64,000 nt of DNA from an uncultured Acidobacteriota bacterium (GTDB lineage: Bacteria; Acidobacteriota; Thermoanaerobaculia; Multivoradales; SZUA-115), in NCBI GenBank assembly GCA_963805975.1, contig CAWDVR010000001.1, positions 1,455,911 through 1,519,910 of the forward strand, given 5' to 3'. This document shows positions 17,894-27,569 of the stretch, piece after piece (the stretch's first letter is position 1; every line of letters starts with the position of its first letter). The notes below the pieces were generated by a model. The model was not told the DNA's origin. It made no database searches and saw only the letters and a program-made list of their open reading frames with translations. Position numbers and translations under genes: made by a program.

Positions 17894-18496
17894 ATGAGTG
17901 CCGCCCACCGCCCCCGCCCGGCCGAGAATGAGGTCAGGGAACCGCAGCAGGTGGCCTATGCCGCGGAAGCCCCGCGGGCGCTTTTTCTCGATCACGTCGT
18001 GGAACGCATCGCCACGGAGATGCGGTTCCTGGCCCGCGCTTATGCCGCGCAAGGCCGCTCTCTCGAGGAGCTGGGCTCGGCGGATGAGGTGGCCAACCGG
18101 ATGGTTGCCACCCTGCCCGCACCGTCCGGCTGGAACGCGGTGCTGGGACCGTTCTACGGCTCGGCCCAGATCGGCAAGATCCTGGGCAACGTCTCCCGGC
18201 AGGCGGTGGCCGACCGTCGGTCCCGGCGCACGCTGCTGGCTCTGCGCACTTCGGACGGCCAGTGGGTCTACCCGACCTTTCAGTTCGACGAGCGCCAGGA
18301 AGTTCTAACAGGCCTGCCGGCAGTAGTGCAGATCCTCGCCGAGAGCGGAGTCGACGACTGGACGCTGGCCGGCTGGCTGGTATCTCCGATGCGTTCCCTC
18401 GGCGGCGCCACTCCTATCGACTGGCTGCGTTCCGGGAACGACGCTGTGATTCTCCGGACCTTGGCGCGCGATGCAGCGCGGCGTTTCGCGCAGTAG
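17894..18496 (+). CDS. Xre/MbcA-like antitoxin
   Basis: HTH segment (VSRQAV), YPTFQF, and C-terminal WL.SP..SLGGATP.DWL. Lies directly upstream of a RES gene. Confidence 0.7.
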   Translation: MSAAHRPRPAENEVREPQQVAYAAEAPRALFLDHVVERIATEMRFLARAYAAQGRSLEELGSADEVANRMVATLPAPSGWNAVLGPFYGSAQIGKILGNVSRQAVADRRSRRTLLALRTSDGQWVYPTFQFDERQEVLTGLPAVVQILAESGVDDWTLAGWLVSPMRSLGGATPIDWLRSGNDAVILRTLARDAARRFAQ

Positions 18497-18513
18497 AACA
18501 AACGCCAGCCGCC

Positions 18514-19155
18514 GTGCCCAAGCGAAGCGAGACCGTGAGCCTGGCCCCGCCGCCGGCAGACCCGGCGGCGCTCGAGGGTTTTCCGCGGATGGTGCTCGAG
18601 AGCGTGACCTGCCTGTATCGCGTGGGCCGCGCCGAGCGCTCACCCTGGTGGTTCGGAAGCTCGCTCGAGGGCCGCTTCGATCTGCCCGAGCCCGACGGCA
18701 CCTGCTACGTGGCTCTCGATCCTCTCGCCGCCCTGCTGGAGGTGATCGGGCCCGACCGCGAGCGCGGCTATCTGAGCGCCGAGCACTTGGCTCGCCGTCG
18801 AATCTACGAGCTCTATCTCGAAGACGACCGCGTCCTTGCCGACCTCCCCGCAACGCAGGCCGCCGCCTTCGGAGTGACACTCGAGATCCACGCCATCGTT
18901 CCCTACGACCTTCCCCAGACCTGGGCGCACCGGCTCCGGGCCGCGGGATTCGAGGGCGTCCGATATCTCGTGCGTCACGATCCTTCGGGCGAAGACGGCC
19001 TCGCGCTGTTCGGCTCCCATGGCGGCCACCCGGACTGGCCAGTCGACGAGGAGAGGGAGATCGGCGCACAGATGCTCGAGCGGCTCGAGACCCGCTACGG
19101 CCTCAAGGTGCTCCGCATCCCACACTCGAGCCAGATCGAGGTCGTCGGCTCGTAG
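18514..19155 (+). CDS. RES-domain toxin
   Basis: LYRV, GRFDL, GTCYVALDPLAALLE, Q.WA, GFEGVRY, ALFG. Confidence 0.8.
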   Translation: MPKRSETVSLAPPPADPAALEGFPRMVLESVTCLYRVGRAERSPWWFGSSLEGRFDLPEPDGTCYVALDPLAALLEVIGPDRERGYLSAEHLARRRIYELYLEDDRVLADLPATQAAAFGVTLEIHAIVPYDLPQTWAHRLRAAGFEGVRYLVRHDPSGEDGLALFGSHGGHPDWPVDEEREIGAQMLERLETRYGLKVLRIPHSSQIEVVGS

Positions 19156-20481: not shown

Positions 20482-21117
20482 ATGGGCCAAGAGGAAGCCG
20501 GTGGTCTGCTGCAACGAGCCCTGGCCGGCGATCAGATCTCTCTGTCCCGCCTGGTTGCCGTGCTGACGCCGGTGATCCAGGCGCGGGCCGCGCGTACCTT
20601 GCTGCCCCGCCGCTCGCGTCTCGCCGACGGGCGAAGCATGCGGCAGGAGGTCGAGGACGTCAGCCAGGAGATCTTCGTCCTGCTCTTCTCCAACAACGCC
20701 CGGGTCCTGCGTAGCTGGCAGGCGGAGCGCGGCCTTTCTCTCGAGAACTTCGTCGGTCTGGTCACCCAACGGCAGATCGTCTCCTTCCTCCGCAGCGGCA
20801 AGCGGAACCCGTGGCGGGAGGAGCCCTTCGCCGCGGAGGATCTCCTCACCGAAGCGCCGGAGCCTGGGCCCGAGCAGGTCGCCGCCAGCCGCGAGCAACT
20901 TCGCCTGGTGCTCGATCGGCTACGGGCCGACGTAAGCCCCCTGGGCTGGCGGCTCTTCGAGCTGCTCTTCATCGAGGAGCTGCCGCTGCCCGAGGTCATG
21001 GCCGCGAGTGGCCTCTCCGCCGACGCGGTCTACGCCTGGCGGAGCCGTCTGCGCCGGCTGGCCCACCAGTTGCTGGCTGGCTTGTCAGGAAACTCGGCGG
21101 GCGGGCGAAATACGTAG
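20482..21117 (+). CDS. ECF-type RNA polymerase sigma factor
   Basis: Region 2 (VEDVSQEIFVLL) and region 4 HTH (EVMAASGLSADAVYAWRSRLRR); 211 aa. Confidence 0.85.
   Translation: MGQEEAGGLLQRALAGDQISLSRLVAVLTPVIQARAARTLLPRRSRLADGRSMRQEVEDVSQEIFVLLFSNNARVLRSWQAERGLSLENFVGLVTQRQIVSFLRSGKRNPWREEPFAAEDLLTEAPEPGPEQVAASREQLRLVLDRLRADVSPLGWRLFELLFIEELPLPEVMAASGLSADAVYAWRSRLRRLAHQLLAGLSGNSAGGRNT
21083..21109 (+). promoter_or_regulatory. putative ECF promoter, copy 1 (TGTCAG-N17-CGAA)
   Basis: TGTCAG gaaactcggcgggcggg CGAA, inside the sigma gene 3' end and just upstream of ATG 21132. Confidence 0.55.
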
Positions 21118-21131
21118 AGAGATGGCCACAC

Positions 21132-21947
21132 ATGAGTAAAGACCCACTGTTGAGCGATCTGGCGCGCCTGGCTCGCGAGGAAGACCGCGGCGAAGACATG
21201 GCCCTCGACGAGCGTTGGGATCGCCTTGCCGCGGGGACGCTCACCGCCGAAGAGGAGGCAGAGCTGAAGGCCCTCGCCGCGACCTCACCCGAGGCGCGGG
21301 ACGCCTACGAGGCCTTCCGGCCCCTCGGAGCCGAGTTCGAGGTTCGGATGGTGGCCGCGGCCGCCGCCGAGCTGAGCGGCGACCACCGAGAGGTCGACCC
21401 TCGGCCGGTGCCGGCTCGCGTGCTCCCGTTTCAGCGGCCTGCGGTGCGCCTGTGGGGCTCACTGGCCGCCGCAAGCGCGGTGGCGGCGTCGCTGCTCCTC
21501 CTCTTGCGCGGGCCGGGCGGACTGCCCCATCTGCCTGTCTACACCGCCGAGCTGAGCGGTGGGAGCCAGATCCTCCGCGGAGGCGACCTGGTCCTGGGGC
21601 CGCCGGTCTTCACCCTCGGTTCGTTGCTGACTCTCGAAGTCCGCCCGGCGCAGTCGGTGAATGGCCTGGTGGAAGCGCGCAGTTTCCTCACCCGCGGCGA
21701 GGAGGTGGTGCGCTGGGAGCGGGAGCCGCCCCTGGAGGTCGCCGGCGGCGCCGTGCGCCTGCGAGGAACGCTCGGCGAGGAGATCCGCCTGCCGGCGGGA
21801 GACTGGCGGCTGTGGATCGTCCTCGCCCGGCCAGGCGAGATGCCGTCGCCCGAGGAGGTCTTGGCAGATCGGGAGAGGAGCAGTGGGGGCCCCGGCTGGC
21901 AGGCGATTTCCGTGGAGCTGCGGGTGGAGGGCCTCTCCGACCCGTGA
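21132..21947 (+). CDS. putative membrane-anchored anti-sigma factor
   Basis: Directly follows the ECF gene. N-terminal segment WDRLAAGTLTAEEEAEL resembles anti-sigma domains, then one TM helix (LWGSLAAASAVAASLLLLL) and a beta-rich extracytoplasmic domain. Confidence 0.65.
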   Translation: MSKDPLLSDLARLAREEDRGEDMALDERWDRLAAGTLTAEEEAELKALAATSPEARDAYEAFRPLGAEFEVRMVAAAAAELSGDHREVDPRPVPARVLPFQRPAVRLWGSLAAASAVAASLLLLLRGPGGLPHLPVYTAELSGGSQILRGGDLVLGPPVFTLGSLLTLEVRPAQSVNGLVEARSFLTRGEEVVRWEREPPLEVAGGAVRLRGTLGEEIRLPAGDWRLWIVLARPGEMPSPEEVLADRERSSGGPGWQAISVELRVEGLSDP

Positions 21948-24685
21948 CCTCCCAGGAATCTCGGCCCGGCCGCGCCTTCGCCTTCCTCGTGGGCCTCGCC
22001 GGGGTGCTGCCGGGCTGCGGGCCCGGACCAGGGCCCGCGCCGCAGGTGGAGTATGCGCGTTGCTGGGCCGTGGACCTGCCCGGCCCGGTTTGCGTGCTCT
22101 ACCCTGATCGCCAGCTCAAGCTGTGGGTCGAGGCTGACCCTCGCGACAGCGTCGAGATCGAGGCCGGGGGCGAGCGCCTGCCAGCCACGGGCGAGGAAGT
22201 GGGGGGCGGCCGGCGTTACCTGCTGGAAGCTCCACCGGCGGCCACCACGCTCAACATCCGCCTGCACCGACCGGACGGCAGAGCGAGCGCGGCCTGGTCG
22301 CTGGCGCTCGCCGAGCCGGAGGCGCCGGCGTGGTTTGGCGAGATTCAAGGGCTTCTCGCGGCCGGCAAGACGGACGAGGCCCGGAGGGTGCTTGCTCCGC
22401 TGCGAGAGTCGGCGCCCGCTCGGCAGCAGGGACTGGTTCTGCAACTGCTGGCGCTGGCGGCCCTCTCCGCCGGAGACAAAGAAGGCGCCCTGGCCCATTT
22501 CGAGAGTGCCAAGGCAGCGGACCATGCCCGCCACCGGTTGAGCGGCGAGGCCCGGAACGCGGCCCTGCTAGCCCGGCTGCAACTGGAGAATGGCCGCTTC
22601 AGAGAGGCTCGTCAGAACCTGGGCGGCCTGTTGCTGACCGAGCCGGCACCGGCCGATGCGAAGGTTCTCGCGGCCTACTACGAGGGCCTCCTGGCGGACC
22701 AAGTGGGTGACTCCCGCCGGGCCTTGCAGCAGCTCCGAGAGGCTGCCGACCTGGCCGACCGAACCGGTCTCCTCCACTATCGCTGGCAGACCGAGCTGAC
22801 CCTGGCCCGGCTGCTCCGGGACCTCGGGCGCTCGCAGAGCGCGGAGGAGATCTTCGTGCGGCTTGCGGCGAACCCCCATTTCGAGACGCCTTGCGACCGT
22901 GGGGTCCTGCTCCAGAACTGGTCCTGGTCGCGGCTGATCGGTCGCGAGGGAGGCGAGGAGGCCATGGACCCGACCGCGATGCTGGAGGAAGCCCTCGCGT
23001 TCTTCGACCGTAACTCCTGCGCTCGTCCGGAGCAACGCCTCAACGCTCGTCTGAACCTCGCGCTCGCTCAGCAGCAGGCCGGCCGCTGGCGTGAGGCGCG
23101 CCGGCTGCTCGCCGAGGCACTGCCGCTGGCGGACCATGCGACCCTGCGCCAGCGCCTGTGGTGGCAGGATCTCGACGGCCGGGCAGCCATCGCCGAAGGC
23201 CAACCGGCGCGTGCCCTGCGCCTCTACCAGGCCCTCCAAGAGATAGCGGAGCAGTCCCTCTCGCGCGAAGGGAGCTTCCGGGCCTGCTTCGGCCGGGCCC
23301 GGGCGGAGCTCGCTCGGGGTCGCCGCGGTGCCGCCCTTGCCACCCTCGTGGAGGCGGATCGGCTCAGCGAGGAGCAGGTCTGGCAGATCCCGCTCCACGA
23401 GGGGCGCGACACTTTTCTTGCCATGCGCGAAGCCGCCACGCGGCTCCACCTGGAGCTCTTGCTGGCGGCCGGGCGGCACGAACAGGCCTTTGCCCTGGCG
23501 AGGCGTTCCCGCTCGCGACTGCTCCGGCAACTGATGGTGCGGGATCGCCTCGCCCAGCTCACCGCGGGAGAGCAGGAGGAATGGGACCGGGCGTTGTCCG
23601 ACTACCAGGCCTTGCGGGCCGAGATCGACCGCGAGGCTGCAGCGGCCTGGCAGCTGCCGAAAGATCAGGTCCGGCGAGCCGGCGAGGGCCGGGCCGCGCA
23701 GCTCGCGGGGGCCCTCGCGGAGCTCGACCGGGCCGTGGCCGGCCTGGGAGATCTCGCGCCGGGCGGCGAGGGGGCGCTCGCCCCGCCGCGGCCGGGTGAG
23801 CTGATCCTGGCCTACCACCCCTTGCCCGGGGGTTGGGTAGGCTTCGCTGCCCACCCCGGCGCGGTCGAGGTGCACCGCTTCGAGCTGTCGCGGGAAGAGC
23901 TCGCCCATCCCGCGGCTCTGGCCCTGAGGCTGCTCGAGCCCTTCCGCTCGGCGATCGCGCAGGCCGAACGGCTGCGGGTGCTGGCCTACGGTGATCTGAG
24001 GCCGATCGACTTCCACGCCCTGCCTTTCGCCGGTGAGCCCCTCCTCGCTCGGCTTCCCGTGATCTTCGGGCTCGATCTACCCACCCGCAGCGCCGCCGGC
24101 CGCGAGGGCCCGCGGATCGCCCTCCTGGTCACCGACCCGGAAGGCAACCTGCCGGCGGCACGGCAGGAGGCCGCCCAAGTCGCCGCGAGAATCGACGGTT
24201 GGGGCCCGGCGTGGGACCTCCGACGCCTCGACCGCCAGGCTGCCAGCGCCGGGGCACTGCGCGCCGCGCTTCCTCGAGCCGAGCTCTTCCACTACGCCGG
24301 TCACGGGGCCTTCGCGGGCTTCGCCGGCTGGGACAGCGTTCTGCGGCTGGCAGACAGCTCGCGGCTGACTCCCGCAGACATCCTGATCCTGCCCCAGGCC
24401 CCCGCCTGGGCCGTCCTCTCTGCCTGCGAAGCGGGGCGATCGTCCGGGGAGGCCCCGGGTGAAGGAATTGGCCTGGCGCAGGCGTTCCTGCTGGCCGGCA
24501 CGCGAGCGGTGGTCGCGGCCACCCGCCCGGTGACGGACCGTGCCGCTCGCGACCTGCTGGGAGAGCTCTACCGCGACTGGAAGCCCGGTGAGGATCTGGC
24601 GCAGGCGCTCCGGGCGGCCCAGCTCGCTTGCCGGCGGCAGGACCCGGCCGCTGACTGGGCGAGCTTCCGACTGCTCGAACCTTGA
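21944..24685 (+). CDS. TPR-CHAT (caspase-like clan CD) protease, probable lipoprotein
   Basis: GTG 21944 overlaps the upstream stop. Lipobox-like GVLPGC, helical repeats, CHAT dyad motifs FHYAGHG and VLSACE, GLAQAFLLAG, terminal WASF. Confidence 0.85.
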   Translation: MTSQESRPGRAFAFLVGLAGVLPGCGPGPGPAPQVEYARCWAVDLPGPVCVLYPDRQLKLWVEADPRDSVEIEAGGERLPATGEEVGGGRRYLLEAPPAATTLNIRLHRPDGRASAAWSLALAEPEAPAWFGEIQGLLAAGKTDEARRVLAPLRESAPARQQGLVLQLLALAALSAGDKEGALAHFESAKAADHARHRLSGEARNAALLARLQLENGRFREARQNLGGLLLTEPAPADAKVLAAYYEGLLADQVGDSRRALQQLREAADLADRTGLLHYRWQTELTLARLLRDLGRSQSAEEIFVRLAANPHFETPCDRGVLLQNWSWSRLIGREGGEEAMDPTAMLEEALAFFDRNSCARPEQRLNARLNLALAQQQAGRWREARRLLAEALPLADHATLRQRLWWQDLDGRAAIAEGQPARALRLYQALQEIAEQSLSREGSFRACFGRARAELARGRRGAALATLVEADRLSEEQVWQIPLHEGRDTFLAMREAATRLHLELLLAAGRHEQAFALARRSRSRLLRQLMVRDRLAQLTAGEQEEWDRALSDYQALRAEIDREAAAAWQLPKDQVRRAGEGRAAQLAGALAELDRAVAGLGDLAPGGEGALAPPRPGELILAYHPLPGGWVGFAAHPGAVEVHRFELSREELAHPAALALRLLEPFRSAIAQAERLRVLAYGDLRPIDFHALPFAGEPLLARLPVIFGLDLPTRSAAGREGPRIALLVTDPEGNLPAARQEAAQVAARIDGWGPAWDLRRLDRQAASAGALRAALPRAELFHYAGHGAFAGFAGWDSVLRLADSSRLTPADILILPQAPAWAVLSACEAGRSSGEAPGEGIGLAQAFLLAGTRAVVAATRPVTDRAARDLLGELYRDWKPGEDLAQALRAAQLACRRQDPAADWASFRLLEP

Positions 24686-24702
24686 GAGACAGCCGGGCCT
24701 GC

Positions 24703-24729
24703 TGTCAGAAACCTCCGCTTCGCCGCGAA
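24703..24729 (+). promoter_or_regulatory. putative ECF promoter, copy 2
   Basis: TGTCAG aaacctccgcttcgccg CGAA in the intergenic region upstream of the S8 gene. Confidence 0.6.
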
Positions 24730-24816
24730 GGCCCTCCTGGGTAGCGGCAATCGATCCACGCGGGGCTCACCCCACCACGGGGCGACCTTTCTCGCCGCGC
24801 CTGGGAGAGATGTCCT

Positions 24817-26961
24817 ATGAAATCCGGAAGCCTTTGTGTCGTAGCCCTGATCGGATTGGTGTGGGCCGCCGCCGGGCATGCGGCTTCGGTGTCGATCCCA
24901 CCCGAAGGCGAAGCCGACTACCCGCAAACGCCGGTCGTGGTGCCACAGACGAGTCGGTCGATCGATCCCAAGAGCGCCATCGCGCACTGGCGGCAGATCG
25001 GCCTGCGGAGCAAGGCCACGGACCGGTGCCCAACGGTGGATGGTTGGGCCGTCGAGAGCCTGCTGAGCCGAGCTCTCTCCTCGACGAACTGTGGGCCCGA
25101 GACCCTCGACCCCCAAGGCCCGTCCGAGGCCGCGCTCCGCGAGGAGCTGACAGACCTCGCCTTGCTGCGAAAGCTTGGGCTGGATCGGATCTGCCTCTAC
25201 ACCGCCGACCCGCGCAACATTCCAGCCTTCAAGAAGGACGGCAAGCTGCCCGCCGACCTGGTGGCAGCGGCACCAGATCGCATGGCCCTGGCGCCAGCCG
25301 CGACGCCGGAAGCTTCGCTCGGCACGCTGGCCTTGGAGAGCTGGCAGATCCTGCGCACCCATTTCCTGGAGCAGGCTGGCAACACCTTCGATCCCGCCAA
25401 CCGGCTGCGCTTCACCGGCAAGCCGAGCGTCCGCCTGGTCTTCCTCGATACCCATCCAACCGGCGAGCGTGTACCGAGCGGTCCCGGTCGCTCGTTTCAC
25501 GGCTACACCCTGGCCCACTTGGCCAACCAACTCATTTGCGGTGGCGAAGCCGGCTGTGCGGTCGAGATCGATACCCGCCTCGCAATGCCCTATGTGAACT
25601 TCGATGAATCGTCCGCCGACGAGGAGAGAGGAGGAAAGATGGGCCTGGTGGCCAACCTCTCTGCGGCGATCCTCGAGGAGGTTTGGCAGTGGCGGCGGGA
25701 TCGCGACCCTGACCGGCCAAAGCACCTGGTGCTCAACCTGTCGTTGGGTTGGGATGGCGAGCTCTTCGGCGATCTCAACGCGCAGACCGTCTCCAGGCTC
25801 GAACCGGGGGTCAGGGCGGTCTACGACGCGCTGACCTTCGCCCGCGACCTCGGAGTGCTGGTGGTTGCCGCCGCCGGCAACGAGCGCGGGGGGCCGGCGA
25901 AGCCCTCCAGCCCCCTGTTTCCCGCCGTCTGGGAGCTGCATAGGCCAGCCAGTGGGCCATTCGCTTCTTGCAGAAAACCGATCTACGCCGTCGGCGGAGT
26001 GGACTGGCAAGGGCTGCCGGTGGCCAACGCCCGCACTGATGGCAAACCACGGCGTTCCGCCTACGCGGATCACGCCGTGACCGGCACCGAAGCCAGAGGA
26101 GCCGAGAGTCCTACGTGGATCTACACCGGAACCTCGGTGGGGGCCGCCGTCACCTCGTCGATCGCCGCCGCCGTCTGGCACCTGCGCCCGGAGCTGGGCC
26201 CAGGCCAGGTAATGAGGTTGATCGACCGCTCCGGAGAATCCCTGGAGGCGCGTGCCGACTTCTACCCCTGGCAGCGGAATCCGCTACTGCGCTGGATCCG
26301 AGGCGAACCGCGGCTCCGCCGGGTGTCTCTCTGCCGCGCGACCGCTCTCGCCCGGGGCCGAGGGCCGGAGTGCTTCTGCCCCAAGTGGAGACGCGAGCCG
26401 CCGGTGCTGGCGCGCCCGATGCCTCCCCCAGCGACCGATTTCGTGGAGAGCGACCCGGAAGCCTATGGTCAGCGCTGCACGTCCACCAGACGGCTGATGG
26501 TCAACGACAACCTCCTGCCAAAGGAGATCTGCCCGGCGGAGAGATTCGGCGACATCGCCAGTCAGCGCTGGACCTTTCCCCAGCCCGAGGACAACCCCTG
26601 CATGGGCTGCGCGCTGATCCCGCCGCGAGAAACCGCCACCTTTCCGGAGCCCGAGGGCCCTCCGCCTTACACCCTGCAGATGGCCCTTCGTCCTGGGTGG
26701 CGCGACGAGGGCGCCGAGATCCTCGCCGCCACCCTCGACATCGAGCGTTTCGAGGGCGACCGGATGACCTACGTGATTTCTCAGGAACATATCGATAGGC
26801 TCAATGATCGAGACCCAATCCCGACCGGGACCAGCATCCAGCTTCTATTCAGCTTGGCCGACCGCGGGTCGCTCTGGGGCTGCACGGCCCGGCTCAACTT
26901 CAAGGTGAGGCGCGGCGACGAGGTCACATCGATCATCGACCCGGTGATCGTGGACCCCTAG
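24817..26961 (+). CDS. secreted S8 (subtilisin-like) serine peptidase, Cys-rich
   Basis: Signal peptide; triad motifs LVFLDT, FHGYTLA and YTGTSVGAA; NLSLG; oxyanion motif VAAAGNE. Confidence 0.85.
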   Translation: MKSGSLCVVALIGLVWAAAGHAASVSIPPEGEADYPQTPVVVPQTSRSIDPKSAIAHWRQIGLRSKATDRCPTVDGWAVESLLSRALSSTNCGPETLDPQGPSEAALREELTDLALLRKLGLDRICLYTADPRNIPAFKKDGKLPADLVAAAPDRMALAPAATPEASLGTLALESWQILRTHFLEQAGNTFDPANRLRFTGKPSVRLVFLDTHPTGERVPSGPGRSFHGYTLAHLANQLICGGEAGCAVEIDTRLAMPYVNFDESSADEERGGKMGLVANLSAAILEEVWQWRRDRDPDRPKHLVLNLSLGWDGELFGDLNAQTVSRLEPGVRAVYDALTFARDLGVLVVAAAGNERGGPAKPSSPLFPAVWELHRPASGPFASCRKPIYAVGGVDWQGLPVANARTDGKPRRSAYADHAVTGTEARGAESPTWIYTGTSVGAAVTSSIAAAVWHLRPELGPGQVMRLIDRSGESLEARADFYPWQRNPLLRWIRGEPRLRRVSLCRATALARGRGPECFCPKWRREPPVLARPMPPPATDFVESDPEAYGQRCTSTRRLMVNDNLLPKEICPAERFGDIASQRWTFPQPEDNPCMGCALIPPRETATFPEPEGPPPYTLQMALRPGWRDEGAEILAATLDIERFEGDRMTYVISQEHIDRLNDRDPIPTGTSIQLLFSLADRGSLWGCTARLNFKVRRGDEVTSIIDPVIVDP

Positions 26962-26983
26962 CGGAATCTCTACGTCTCGCCTC

Positions 26984-27021
26984 ACGCTGCCGGCCGGGGT
27001 CGAGCCCTCGGCCGGCAGCGT
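26984..27021. terminator. hairpin between convergent genes (possible bidirectional terminator)
   Basis: 13-bp perfect inverted repeat ACGCTGCCGGCCG / CGGCCGGCAGCGT; no U-tract. Confidence 0.5.
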
Positions 27022-27285
27022 TCACTGCTCGAGCTCTTCATGGGGCGAGACGGCATACGCTTCGTCGTCTCCGCCGGGCACCAACGTGCAACCCATGCAC
27101 GGGTTGTTCGCGGGCTTGTCCCACGCCCGTACTAACCACCGCTGTAGGAGCTCCCAGAGAGCGCCGACCCCGAAGACCGTTTTCGCCCCACCACGCACCG
27201 GCGCCGCCCCCGCAAGGGACGATCCCGACAGCATGGCAAGGGCTACCACCACGACCACCGCGAAGCGCAGCTCACGTCGTGCCAT
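27022..27285 (-). CDS. small secreted protein (87 aa) with NPCMGC motif
   Basis: GGAGG SD before ATG 27285; signal peptide (MARRELRFAVVVVVALAMLSGSSLAGA); Trp-rich amphipathic segment; then KPANNPCMGCTLVP. Confidence 0.75.
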   Translation of the reverse strand: MARRELRFAVVVVVALAMLSGSSLAGAAPVRGGAKTVFGVGALWELLQRWLVRAWDKPANNPCMGCTLVPGGDDEAYAVSPHEELEQ

Positions 27286-27374
27286 GCCGTCCTCCGTTCG
27301 CTTGCAAGCCCCGCCGGCCACCGTCGGTCGAGTCGGTTCCGGTACTCTAACCCGCGGGCGGTTCACGGTTCTGC

Positions 27375-27401
27375 TGTCAGAAATCCCCCGCGGCCAGCGA
27401 A
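27375..27401 (+). promoter_or_regulatory. putative ECF promoter, copy 3
   Basis: TGTCAG aaatcccccgcggccag CGAA. Confidence 0.55.
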
Positions 27402-27569
27402 GTGCTCTGTATCGAGGCCGGAAGACAGGATCTCCCTGTTTTCACGAGCACGGAGTACTTCATCATGGCAAACGAACGGAGCTTGCGTCGTCGGGAAAAG
27501 CAAGCGATCTACAGCCTCGTAGCGACTTCACAGTGGCCGGGAGAGTGGAGCTGAGGGGCCCGAAAGGGG

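Follow-up and report, generated by a model that had tools for sequence, protein, structure and literature searches.

In the bacterium studied here, an uncultured member of the Acidobacteriota (GTDB lineage Thermoanaerobaculia; Multivoradales; SZUA-115), a four-gene unit encodes a sigma factor of the extracytoplasmic function (ECF) type, a predicted anti-sigma factor, a TPR-CHAT protein, and a subtilase of family S8. It lies in a stretch of 64,000 nucleotides that we analyzed at full length and call the window (contig CAWDVR010000001.1 of assembly GCA_963805975.1, positions 1,455,911 to 1,519,910), and its parts recall several described systems. In the DdvS/DdvA pair of Myxococcus xanthus, as reported in PMC11506125 (PDB 8ROT and 8RW5), the ECF sigma factor comes with a membrane-spanning anti-sigma factor that has a periplasmic TPR-CHAT region; RseP cuts DdvA once TPR-CHAT has been removed, and the CHAT domain is proposed as the site-1 protease. 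The DdvS promoter reads GTAA-N16-CGT, and ddvS is autoregulated (PMC6061681). ECF54, described from Actinobacteria only, combines an ECF sigma factor with a subtilase and a TPR-CHAT protein and is presented without an anti-sigma factor; proteolytic regulation has been proposed for it, its +1 gene is carboxypeptidase-regulatory-like, and its promoter is GTATCAG/CTCC (PMC7826278, PMC8999054). In the type III-E Craspase, the TPR-CHAT protease Csx29 cuts Csx30 and so frees CASP-sigma, which recognizes sites in its own locus; this machinery is described as cytoplasmic and as activated by RNA via Cas7-11 (PMC10028731).

By the features that define them, the acidobacterial unit is likely none of these systems, and it likely works like a split DdvA. 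With DdvS/DdvA it shares an ECF sigma factor, a single-pass anti-sigma factor, and a predicted periplasmic TPR-CHAT protein with a His-Cys dyad, as well as an operon with a second peptidase gene (a putative C25 peptidase there, an S8 here), and four relatives of the cassette have the fused layout. It differs in that TPR-CHAT is usually a separate lipoprotein, in that the anti-sigma factor lacks zinc-binding cysteines (CHCC in DdvA) and has a periplasmic domain of its own, and in that the promoter-like motif is TGTCAG-N16-GCGAA, with the ECF gene usually not behind its own motif. DdvS/DdvA is associated with control of a CRISPR/CBASS defense island; here the cassette and two weak places are the only locations with motif sites, and there is no Cas1 in the 96% complete genome (no search was made for CBASS, antiphage signaling systems based on cyclic oligonucleotides). 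With ECF54 the unit shares neighboring subtilase and TPR-CHAT genes, whereas its +1 gene encodes a transmembrane protein with no carboxypeptidase-regulatory-like Pfam match, its proteases are predicted to be exported, and its −35 element is partly alike (TCAG) but its −10 differs. One actinomycetotal locus (L054:9095-14343) has the order S8-ECF-soluble protein-TPR-CHAT and fits the ECF54 context. It is distantly related to the window unit (ECF, 26% identity; CHAT, E value 1e-16; S8, E 6e-6), and its +1 gene has no detectable similarity to the window +1 protein.

The comparison with Craspase bears on a first-pass annotation that had been made from the letters alone and that took Csx29/Csx30 as its model. 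Csx29 does rank just after DdvA in our fold search, but the protease here is predicted to be exported and no CRISPR array lies near the locus (Cas7-11 itself was not searched for); DdvA, the top fold match and the one whose fused layout recurs in relatives of the cassette, is the closer model. The independence from CRISPR that the same annotation had proposed is supported, with no Cas1 in the genome and no array near the locus. Its remark that no characterized system has this composition is not supported, since an ECF gene with subtilase and TPR-CHAT genes is the ECF54 context (PMC7826278), and an ECF sigma factor with an anti-sigma factor and TPR-CHAT is DdvS/DdvA (PMC11506125). The gene mix itself is not new, and the mechanism has already been proposed for DdvA. 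We found no paper on this acidobacterial and myxobacterial cassette, and a later ECF group description may bear on its novelty.

Between aroC and an EamA gene we found the five open reading frames (ORFs) that the first-pass annotation had listed, four on the + strand and one converging on the − strand. These genes and the candidate cut site are as follows.

20482-21117, + strand: ECF sigma factor, 211 aa (TIGR02937, E 4e-6, below the curated cut-off)
21132-21947, + strand: predicted single-pass anti-sigma factor, 271 aa (hydropathy, position, alignment)
21576-21578, + strand: candidate site-1 cut site at Arg149 of the anti-sigma factor (ELSGGSQILR/G; conservation)
21944-24685, + strand: predicted lipoprotein TPR-CHAT, 913 aa (PF12770, E 4e-30)
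24817-26961, + strand: predicted secreted subtilase (S8), 714 aa (PF00082, E 6e-6)
27022-27285, − strand: predicted secreted peptide precursor, 87 aa (ORF with GGAGG upstream of its ATG)

Our preferred reading, to which we assign a probability of roughly 55%, is that CHAT cuts the anti-sigma factor outside the membrane at Arg149 and that an RseP-type protease then frees the ECF sigma factor. The anti-sigma factor would bind the ECF sigma factor, a periplasmic signal would activate CHAT via its TPRs, and, after the cut at Arg149 and the subsequent cut by the RseP-type protease (the genome has four M50 protease matches), the freed ECF would transcribe the anti-sigma and CHAT genes, thereby resetting the switch, together with the S8 gene and a variable cargo slot. 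The fusions of anti-sigma and TPR-CHAT, the rank of DdvA as best fold match, and the conservation of Arg149 are what make CHAT the likely site-1 protease. In four loci from three genomes (L023, L181, L182, and L183), anti-sigma and TPR-CHAT are encoded in one frame without a lipoprotein signal, while in the window they are separate genes, and the ECF, anti-sigma, and CHAT genes are translationally coupled.

The TPR-CHAT protein consists of a beta-sandwich, TPRs, and the CHAT domain, with a predicted lipoprotein cysteine at position 25; 18 of 25 homologues have a lipobox-like cysteine within their first 30 residues. Its model (predicted local distance difference test, pLDDT, 88) matches DdvA (8rot), Csx29, and separase, in that order, at low whole-chain TM-scores of 0.26 to 0.40, and DdvA is the only CHAT protein among its PDB sequence matches (E 2e-11). 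The dyad His787/Cys828 is invariant in 25/25 aligned homologues, and Asp211/His228/Asn355/Ser440 of the S8 are invariant in 36/36, so that the intact catalytic motifs read from the bare sequence hold across both families; export signals on both proteases, likewise noted at first pass, are again predicted when judged by hydropathy and lipobox pattern.

The anti-sigma factor is built from a cysteine-free N-terminal domain, a hydrophobic helix at about residues 109 to 125, and a predicted periplasmic domain. Among 25 homologues, hydropathy gives one peak in 21 and two in 4, and no cysteine precedes the membrane helix in any of them. With no family match to go by, we infer the anti-sigma role from position, topology, and a weak lead in the Atlas, where a zf-HC2 cluster (18% of its members) is found among the neighbors at 0.93. 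Arg149 stands about 25 residues past the helix in a variable loop and is an arginine in 71 of 72 aligned separate homologues; the residue after it is usually Gly, Ser, or Ala, followed by a variable linker, and the arginine can also be seen in the fused forms. Separases are reported to cut after arginine (PMC11506125).

The unit is a real and conserved one, independent of CRISPR, in Acidobacteria and myxobacteria, as judged from its recurrence in related genomes and metagenomes. A homologue search over 61 related genomes gave an S8 match in 18, an ECF match in 18, and both in 17, with named homologues coming from Thermoanaerobaculia; the ECF proteins of the cassettes share about 50 to 70% identity with that of the window, which is single copy in its genome (next-best tblastn match, E 0.004). 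A same-strand S8 match lies 4 to 6 kb downstream of 23 of the 25 ECF matches in relatives, the other two being at contig ends. Among the best 20 of 35 non-self S8 matches, ECF and CHAT genes lie upstream in 18 and an anti-sigma match in 17, and the other two are orphan S8 genes preceded by the motif. The metagenome scan was ECF-centered, a short S8 alignment having proved too variable as a query, and kept 80 of 272 loci; where enough downstream DNA was present, it contained the anti-sigma in 46/48 loci, CHAT in 30/31, and S8 in 26/27. A further genome scan returned 28 loci, of which 7 are titled Thermoanaerobaculia or Holophagales (3 of them repeats of known DNA, not double-counted) and 7 others Myxococcota, besides Sorangium cellulosum So ce56 (these counts overlap by title), and 15 are distant S8s without the cassette. 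The Myxococcota loci comprise 5 with the four genes in order, 1 rearranged, and 1 too short; the cultured strain So ce56 is among the carriers of the cassette (L043). The co-occurrence of ECF, CHAT, and S8 genes that the first-pass annotation had proposed to look for is thus found at 23/25 ECF matches in relatives, in 26/27 long metagenome loci, and in Myxococcota.

Relatedly, the unit is likely mobile: the junction of aroC and EamA is variable and the CHAT tree does not follow genus, which together mark it as an insertion at a variable site. In the relatives L184, L185, and L186 the junction is empty (10 bp), holds one secreted-protein gene, or holds a PIN-like gene pair plus an ORF, and in the tree the window CHAT groups with L031 and L033 (99/96) and not with the cassette of its own genus; the tree has too many open branches to date the fusions. 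Several unusual arrangements were seen in passing. A second ORF with the PQP..CxxC motif and the C-terminal part of an S8, without the catalytic domain, lies beside an inverted S8 fragment (L041:6045-7037). Four spaced repeats resembling a short CRISPR array lie about 700 nt behind an S8 gene (L020:7445-7667), the sole case among the loci scanned, and a run of 17 plus 4 repeats with 55- to 85-nt spacing in the genome of the window (C4:576592-578118) is a tandem repeat or an orphan array.

A promoter-like motif links most of the unit. The pattern TGTCAGAAA-N13-GCGAA has three copies in the genome, all at this locus; in the form TGTCAGRAA-N13-GCGAA they start at 21083, 24703, and 27375, the pattern is absent elsewhere in the 5.36-Mb genome, and 0/100 shuffles reached three.

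21083-21109, + strand: motif copy 1, inside the 3' end of the ECF gene and ahead of the anti-sigma gene (TGTCAG, predicted −35; 16 nt; GCGAA, predicted −10)
24703-24729, + strand: motif copy 2, ahead of the S8 gene; top-scoring site of the genome, kept between CHAT and S8 in homologous loci
27375-27401, + strand: motif copy 3, cargo-slot site, pointing away from the small gene
27465-27554, + strand: 29-codon ORF downstream of motif copy 3, with no homologue found and no Rfam match there

TGTCAG and GCGAA separated by 16 nt have what we take to be the spacing of an ECF promoter. When a matrix is trained on 33 sites taken from other genomes, with the metagenome loci kept out of training, the three window sites receive the highest scores in this genome (31.1, 28.2, and 23.2). 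Of 79 metagenome loci, 69 have a site within the 3' end of the ECF gene; 1 of 61 has a site upstream of that gene, 17 of 24 have an equivalent site after the S8 gene, and one reverse-strand site was seen across the 80 loci. Matches to a strict pattern number 37 in the 19 genomes that carry a cassette gene and 24 in the other 42, and the reversed control pattern gives 11 in all 61. In most loci no motif precedes the ECF gene itself, two fused loci with a site upstream of it being exceptions, and this layout predicts that the ECF sigma factor raises the anti-sigma and CHAT genes, the S8 gene, and the cargo slot, but not itself. Of the threefold motif that the first-pass annotation had used to tie all the genes together, the copies before the anti-sigma and CHAT genes and before the subtilase gene stand, and the third copy is present but faces away from the small gene. 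With all three copies on the + strand, copy 3 does not tie the small gene to the others, and its orientation rules it out as the promoter of that gene. A sigma-70 scan of the region found no site.

The cargo downstream of post-S8 and orphan sites is diverse. It comprises TIR-TPR proteins, a further S8, HExxH proteins (a fungalysin-type proprotein among them), a protein with a carboxypeptidase-regulatory domain, a GMC oxidoreductase, a tail-sheath gene, and several families without a match; at the thresholds used, Pfam recognized nothing in 14 of 22 and 4 of 9 cargo proteins. TIR-TPR proteins stand directly behind the post-S8 motif in one group of related loci, L114, L117, L119, L122, and L129 (Pfam was run on L114 and L119). 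A cargo family of 730 to 780 aa without a Pfam match recurs at L012:5250-7553, L086:8499-10805, L089:16764-18956, and L147:9642-11969, and its L012 member has no NCBIfam match either. A phage-tail-sheath gene in a cassette-bearing genome (L172:285-2768) has a strong copy of the motif (31.7) in front of it, and the ECF sigma factor there may control a contractile tail-like system. The slot in the window is nearly empty, with only the 29-codon ORF, which is possibly a remnant or a small RNA or peptide; it matches nothing among the loci compared and was rejected as a broken cargo gene, and a lone sub-threshold Rfam match within the ECF gene was taken as chance. Outside the locus, sites at C1:164017 (22.8) and C5:710552 (21.6) are leads only for a regulon, a crude Markov control expecting about 3.6 sites above 21. 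At C5:710637 (L164:1138-3345) a secreted M6-like metalloprotease of 736 aa is encoded 88 nt behind a weaker motif copy, which makes it a possible distant regulon member and a weak fourth candidate.

Several points weigh against a CHAT cut at Arg149. The anti-sigma factor has no Pfam, NCBIfam, or PDB match, and the conservation of Arg149 could be structural. Fusions occur in just 4 of 25 ECF loci of relatives and in 0 of 30 metagenome loci with CHAT, and a protein database search for longer fused anti-sigmas, itself a weak search, scored none. The homologous loci are kin, some of them near-copies, so that conservation counts are not independent; no motif turned up in 5 of the 6 Myxococcota loci checked or in several acidobacterial cassettes. 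For DdvA, too, PMC11506125 presents autoproteolysis by CHAT as proposed and not demonstrated, and the signal as unknown. Finally, the S8 is also predicted to be exported, is co-conserved, and might be the site-1 protease. This last point leads to the main rival account, which we judge unlikely while taking it seriously: the S8 would clip the anti-sigma factor, and TPR-CHAT would be a sensor that matures or gates the S8. An intact triad, predicted export, and a place behind CHAT in 26/27 long loci are what such an enzyme would have; site-one protease is among its fold matches, and its conserved noncatalytic motif could dock on CHAT. Yet it is to CHAT and not to the S8 that the anti-sigma factor fuses, and the S8 gene has an ECF motif of its own in front, the placement expected of an output, and is also found as motif-bearing orphans. 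The other account makes both proteases outputs or cargo maturases, with CHAT merely regulated and the anti-sigma factor freed by a host protease or a nonproteolytic signal. It accommodates the ECF motif in front of both CHAT and S8, a cargo that includes several secreted proteases and proproteins, and the DdvA dyad mutants, for which PMC11506125 reports no phenotype in resting or Mx4-infected cells. The fusion of CHAT and anti-sigma in three genomes, the translational coupling of the two genes, the conserved arginine in a variable loop, and a cargo that varies while CHAT stays speak against it, and we consider it quite improbable.

The remaining questions concern the subtilase and its small convergent neighbor, for which two further features are needed.

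26578-26610, + strand: PQPxxxPCxxC motif of the S8 (PQPEDNPCMGC), residues 588-598, from the pattern in S8 homologues
26984-27021: GC-rich hairpin between the converging S8 and small genes (−37 kcal/mol, z −4.4; 0/200 shuffles as stable)

The S8 has the triad, the oxyanion Asn, and the subtilisin fold by which family S8 is defined; its model (predicted TM-score 0.85) finds pro-subtilisins as best matches, with site-one protease also among them. A prodomain and the S8 domain are followed by a linker with PQPEDNPCMGC and by a C-terminal beta-sandwich. The loose Pro/Gln..CxxC pattern is found in 115/115 full-length S8 homologues (120 listed) and in 24 of 25 metagenome S8s, and 15 of those 25 end right after a PQPxxxPCxxC-type motif, which shows that the motif outlasts the beta-sandwich. 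In the S8-only model the segment is fairly ordered (pLDDT about 79).

The small protein has a predicted signal peptide and a Trp-rich leader ending in Lys, followed by PANNPCMGCTLVPGG, a copy of the S8 motif; its core is NPCMGCTLVPGG, not DPNG. Over 40 nt this core is 80% identical to the S8 gene, with three of the changes synonymous. The shared NPCMGC motif pointed out at first pass is confirmed, occurring in the six frames of the genome exactly twice, in the S8 and in the small gene; when the small protein was shuffled 5000 times, 32 of the products matched the S8 exactly over any 6 residues. Among the other S8s compared, NPCMGC is present only in P0002-P0004. About eight small secreted precursors encoded in the genome share this build and have GCxxDPNG-like cores (C1:196253, which precedes a TPR protein gene, C1:964262, C2:575045, C2:841030, C3:214130, C4:67525, C4:551053, and C5:628730). 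Like them, the small gene encodes a signal peptide, a Trp-rich amphipathic leader, a Lys, and a short GCxLxPxG-like core; unlike them, its core copies the S8 motif, and its neighbors are the S8 and EamA genes rather than a cytoplasmic TPR receptor gene. With a profile of the DPNG leaders it reaches 22.6 bits; none of 138 other small secreted ORFs exceeds 13.4, and 0/300 shuffles do as well. The test is partly circular, 3 of the 8 training leaders having been selected on a Trp pattern. A homologue search returned only the gene itself among two candidates; a profile search gave one other hit, P0122, a Cys/Trp repeat protein judged unrelated; the best match outside its own genome, over 301 genomes, has an internal stop (E 4.5e-4) and was treated as noise, and Atlas matches are all under 0.9. 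No similar small ORF was found in 178 other loci, fewer than 50 of which cover DNA behind an S8. We read the small gene as a local chimera, a DPNG-type precursor that carries a copy of the S8 motif and is seen only in this genome. The first-pass annotation had counted it as a standing member of the system, a place that it loses given the lack of homologues, its absence from those 178 loci, and the direction of motif copy 3.

Whether this chimera does anything is weighed between two readings. That it is neutral or not expressed, left over when a DPNG-type precursor gene recombined with the S8 gene and playing no part in the system, has, to our minds, little short of an even chance: it is a singleton, no ECF motif stands in front of it, no sigma-70 site was found in the region, and Atlas recognition is low. 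A good ribosome site, an intact signal and leader, an open frame, the hairpin shared with the S8 gene, and the synonymous changes within a retained motif tell the other way. The alternative, rather unlikely, adds to the CHAT reading instead of replacing it: the PQPxxxPCxxC segment of the S8 would be a ligand that activates TPR-CHAT in a positive feedback, and the small gene would supply the peptide as an agonist or decoy. The motif is in all 115 full-length S8s and forms a free C-terminal tail in 15/25, the small-gene copy sits right after a DPNG-type leader, where such precursors carry their cores, and the changes within it are either silent or match variation found among S8 homologues. But this is a single example, with no homologue found and no other motif-bearing small precursor in the 178 loci; a motif pLDDT of about 79 in the S8-only model fits a structural or intramolecular role, and a chance conversion would be favored by the likeness that the DPNG core GCxLxPxG has from the outset to part of the motif. 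The complete loop, in which the S8 tail as ligand of periplasmic CHAT would lead to the Arg149 cut and on to more subtilase and effector from the cargo slot, with the peptide grafted here onto a pheromone-type precursor, is more doubtful still.

The hairpin is likely a shared terminator of the S8 and small genes, although it has no U-tract and the terminator scan did not call it. Just upstream of aroC, at 17894-19155, adjacent genes encode a weak Xre/MbcA-like C-terminal domain and a RES domain (E 1e-12) and are likely a RES-Xre toxin-antitoxin pair.

According to PMC11506125, the idea of CHAT as an anti-sigma site-1 protease becomes testable only once the signal is known. The cassette provides a candidate cut site (Arg149), a defined promoter-like motif on which a reporter can be built, and, in the S8 tail and the small-gene copy of it, a candidate ligand; with enzyme and substrate split into two genes the site-1 question becomes testable with purified proteins. 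For Thermoanaerobaculia and myxobacteria these results point to a regulatory module that is widespread but patchily distributed and whose cargo slot is exchangeable. The diversity of its cargo and its scattered occurrence suggest that it may act in conflict or in extracellular proteolysis. If the S8 tail were indeed the ligand, it would supply the missing trigger for DdvA-type switches and reveal a peptide communication loop in a Gram-negative lineage.

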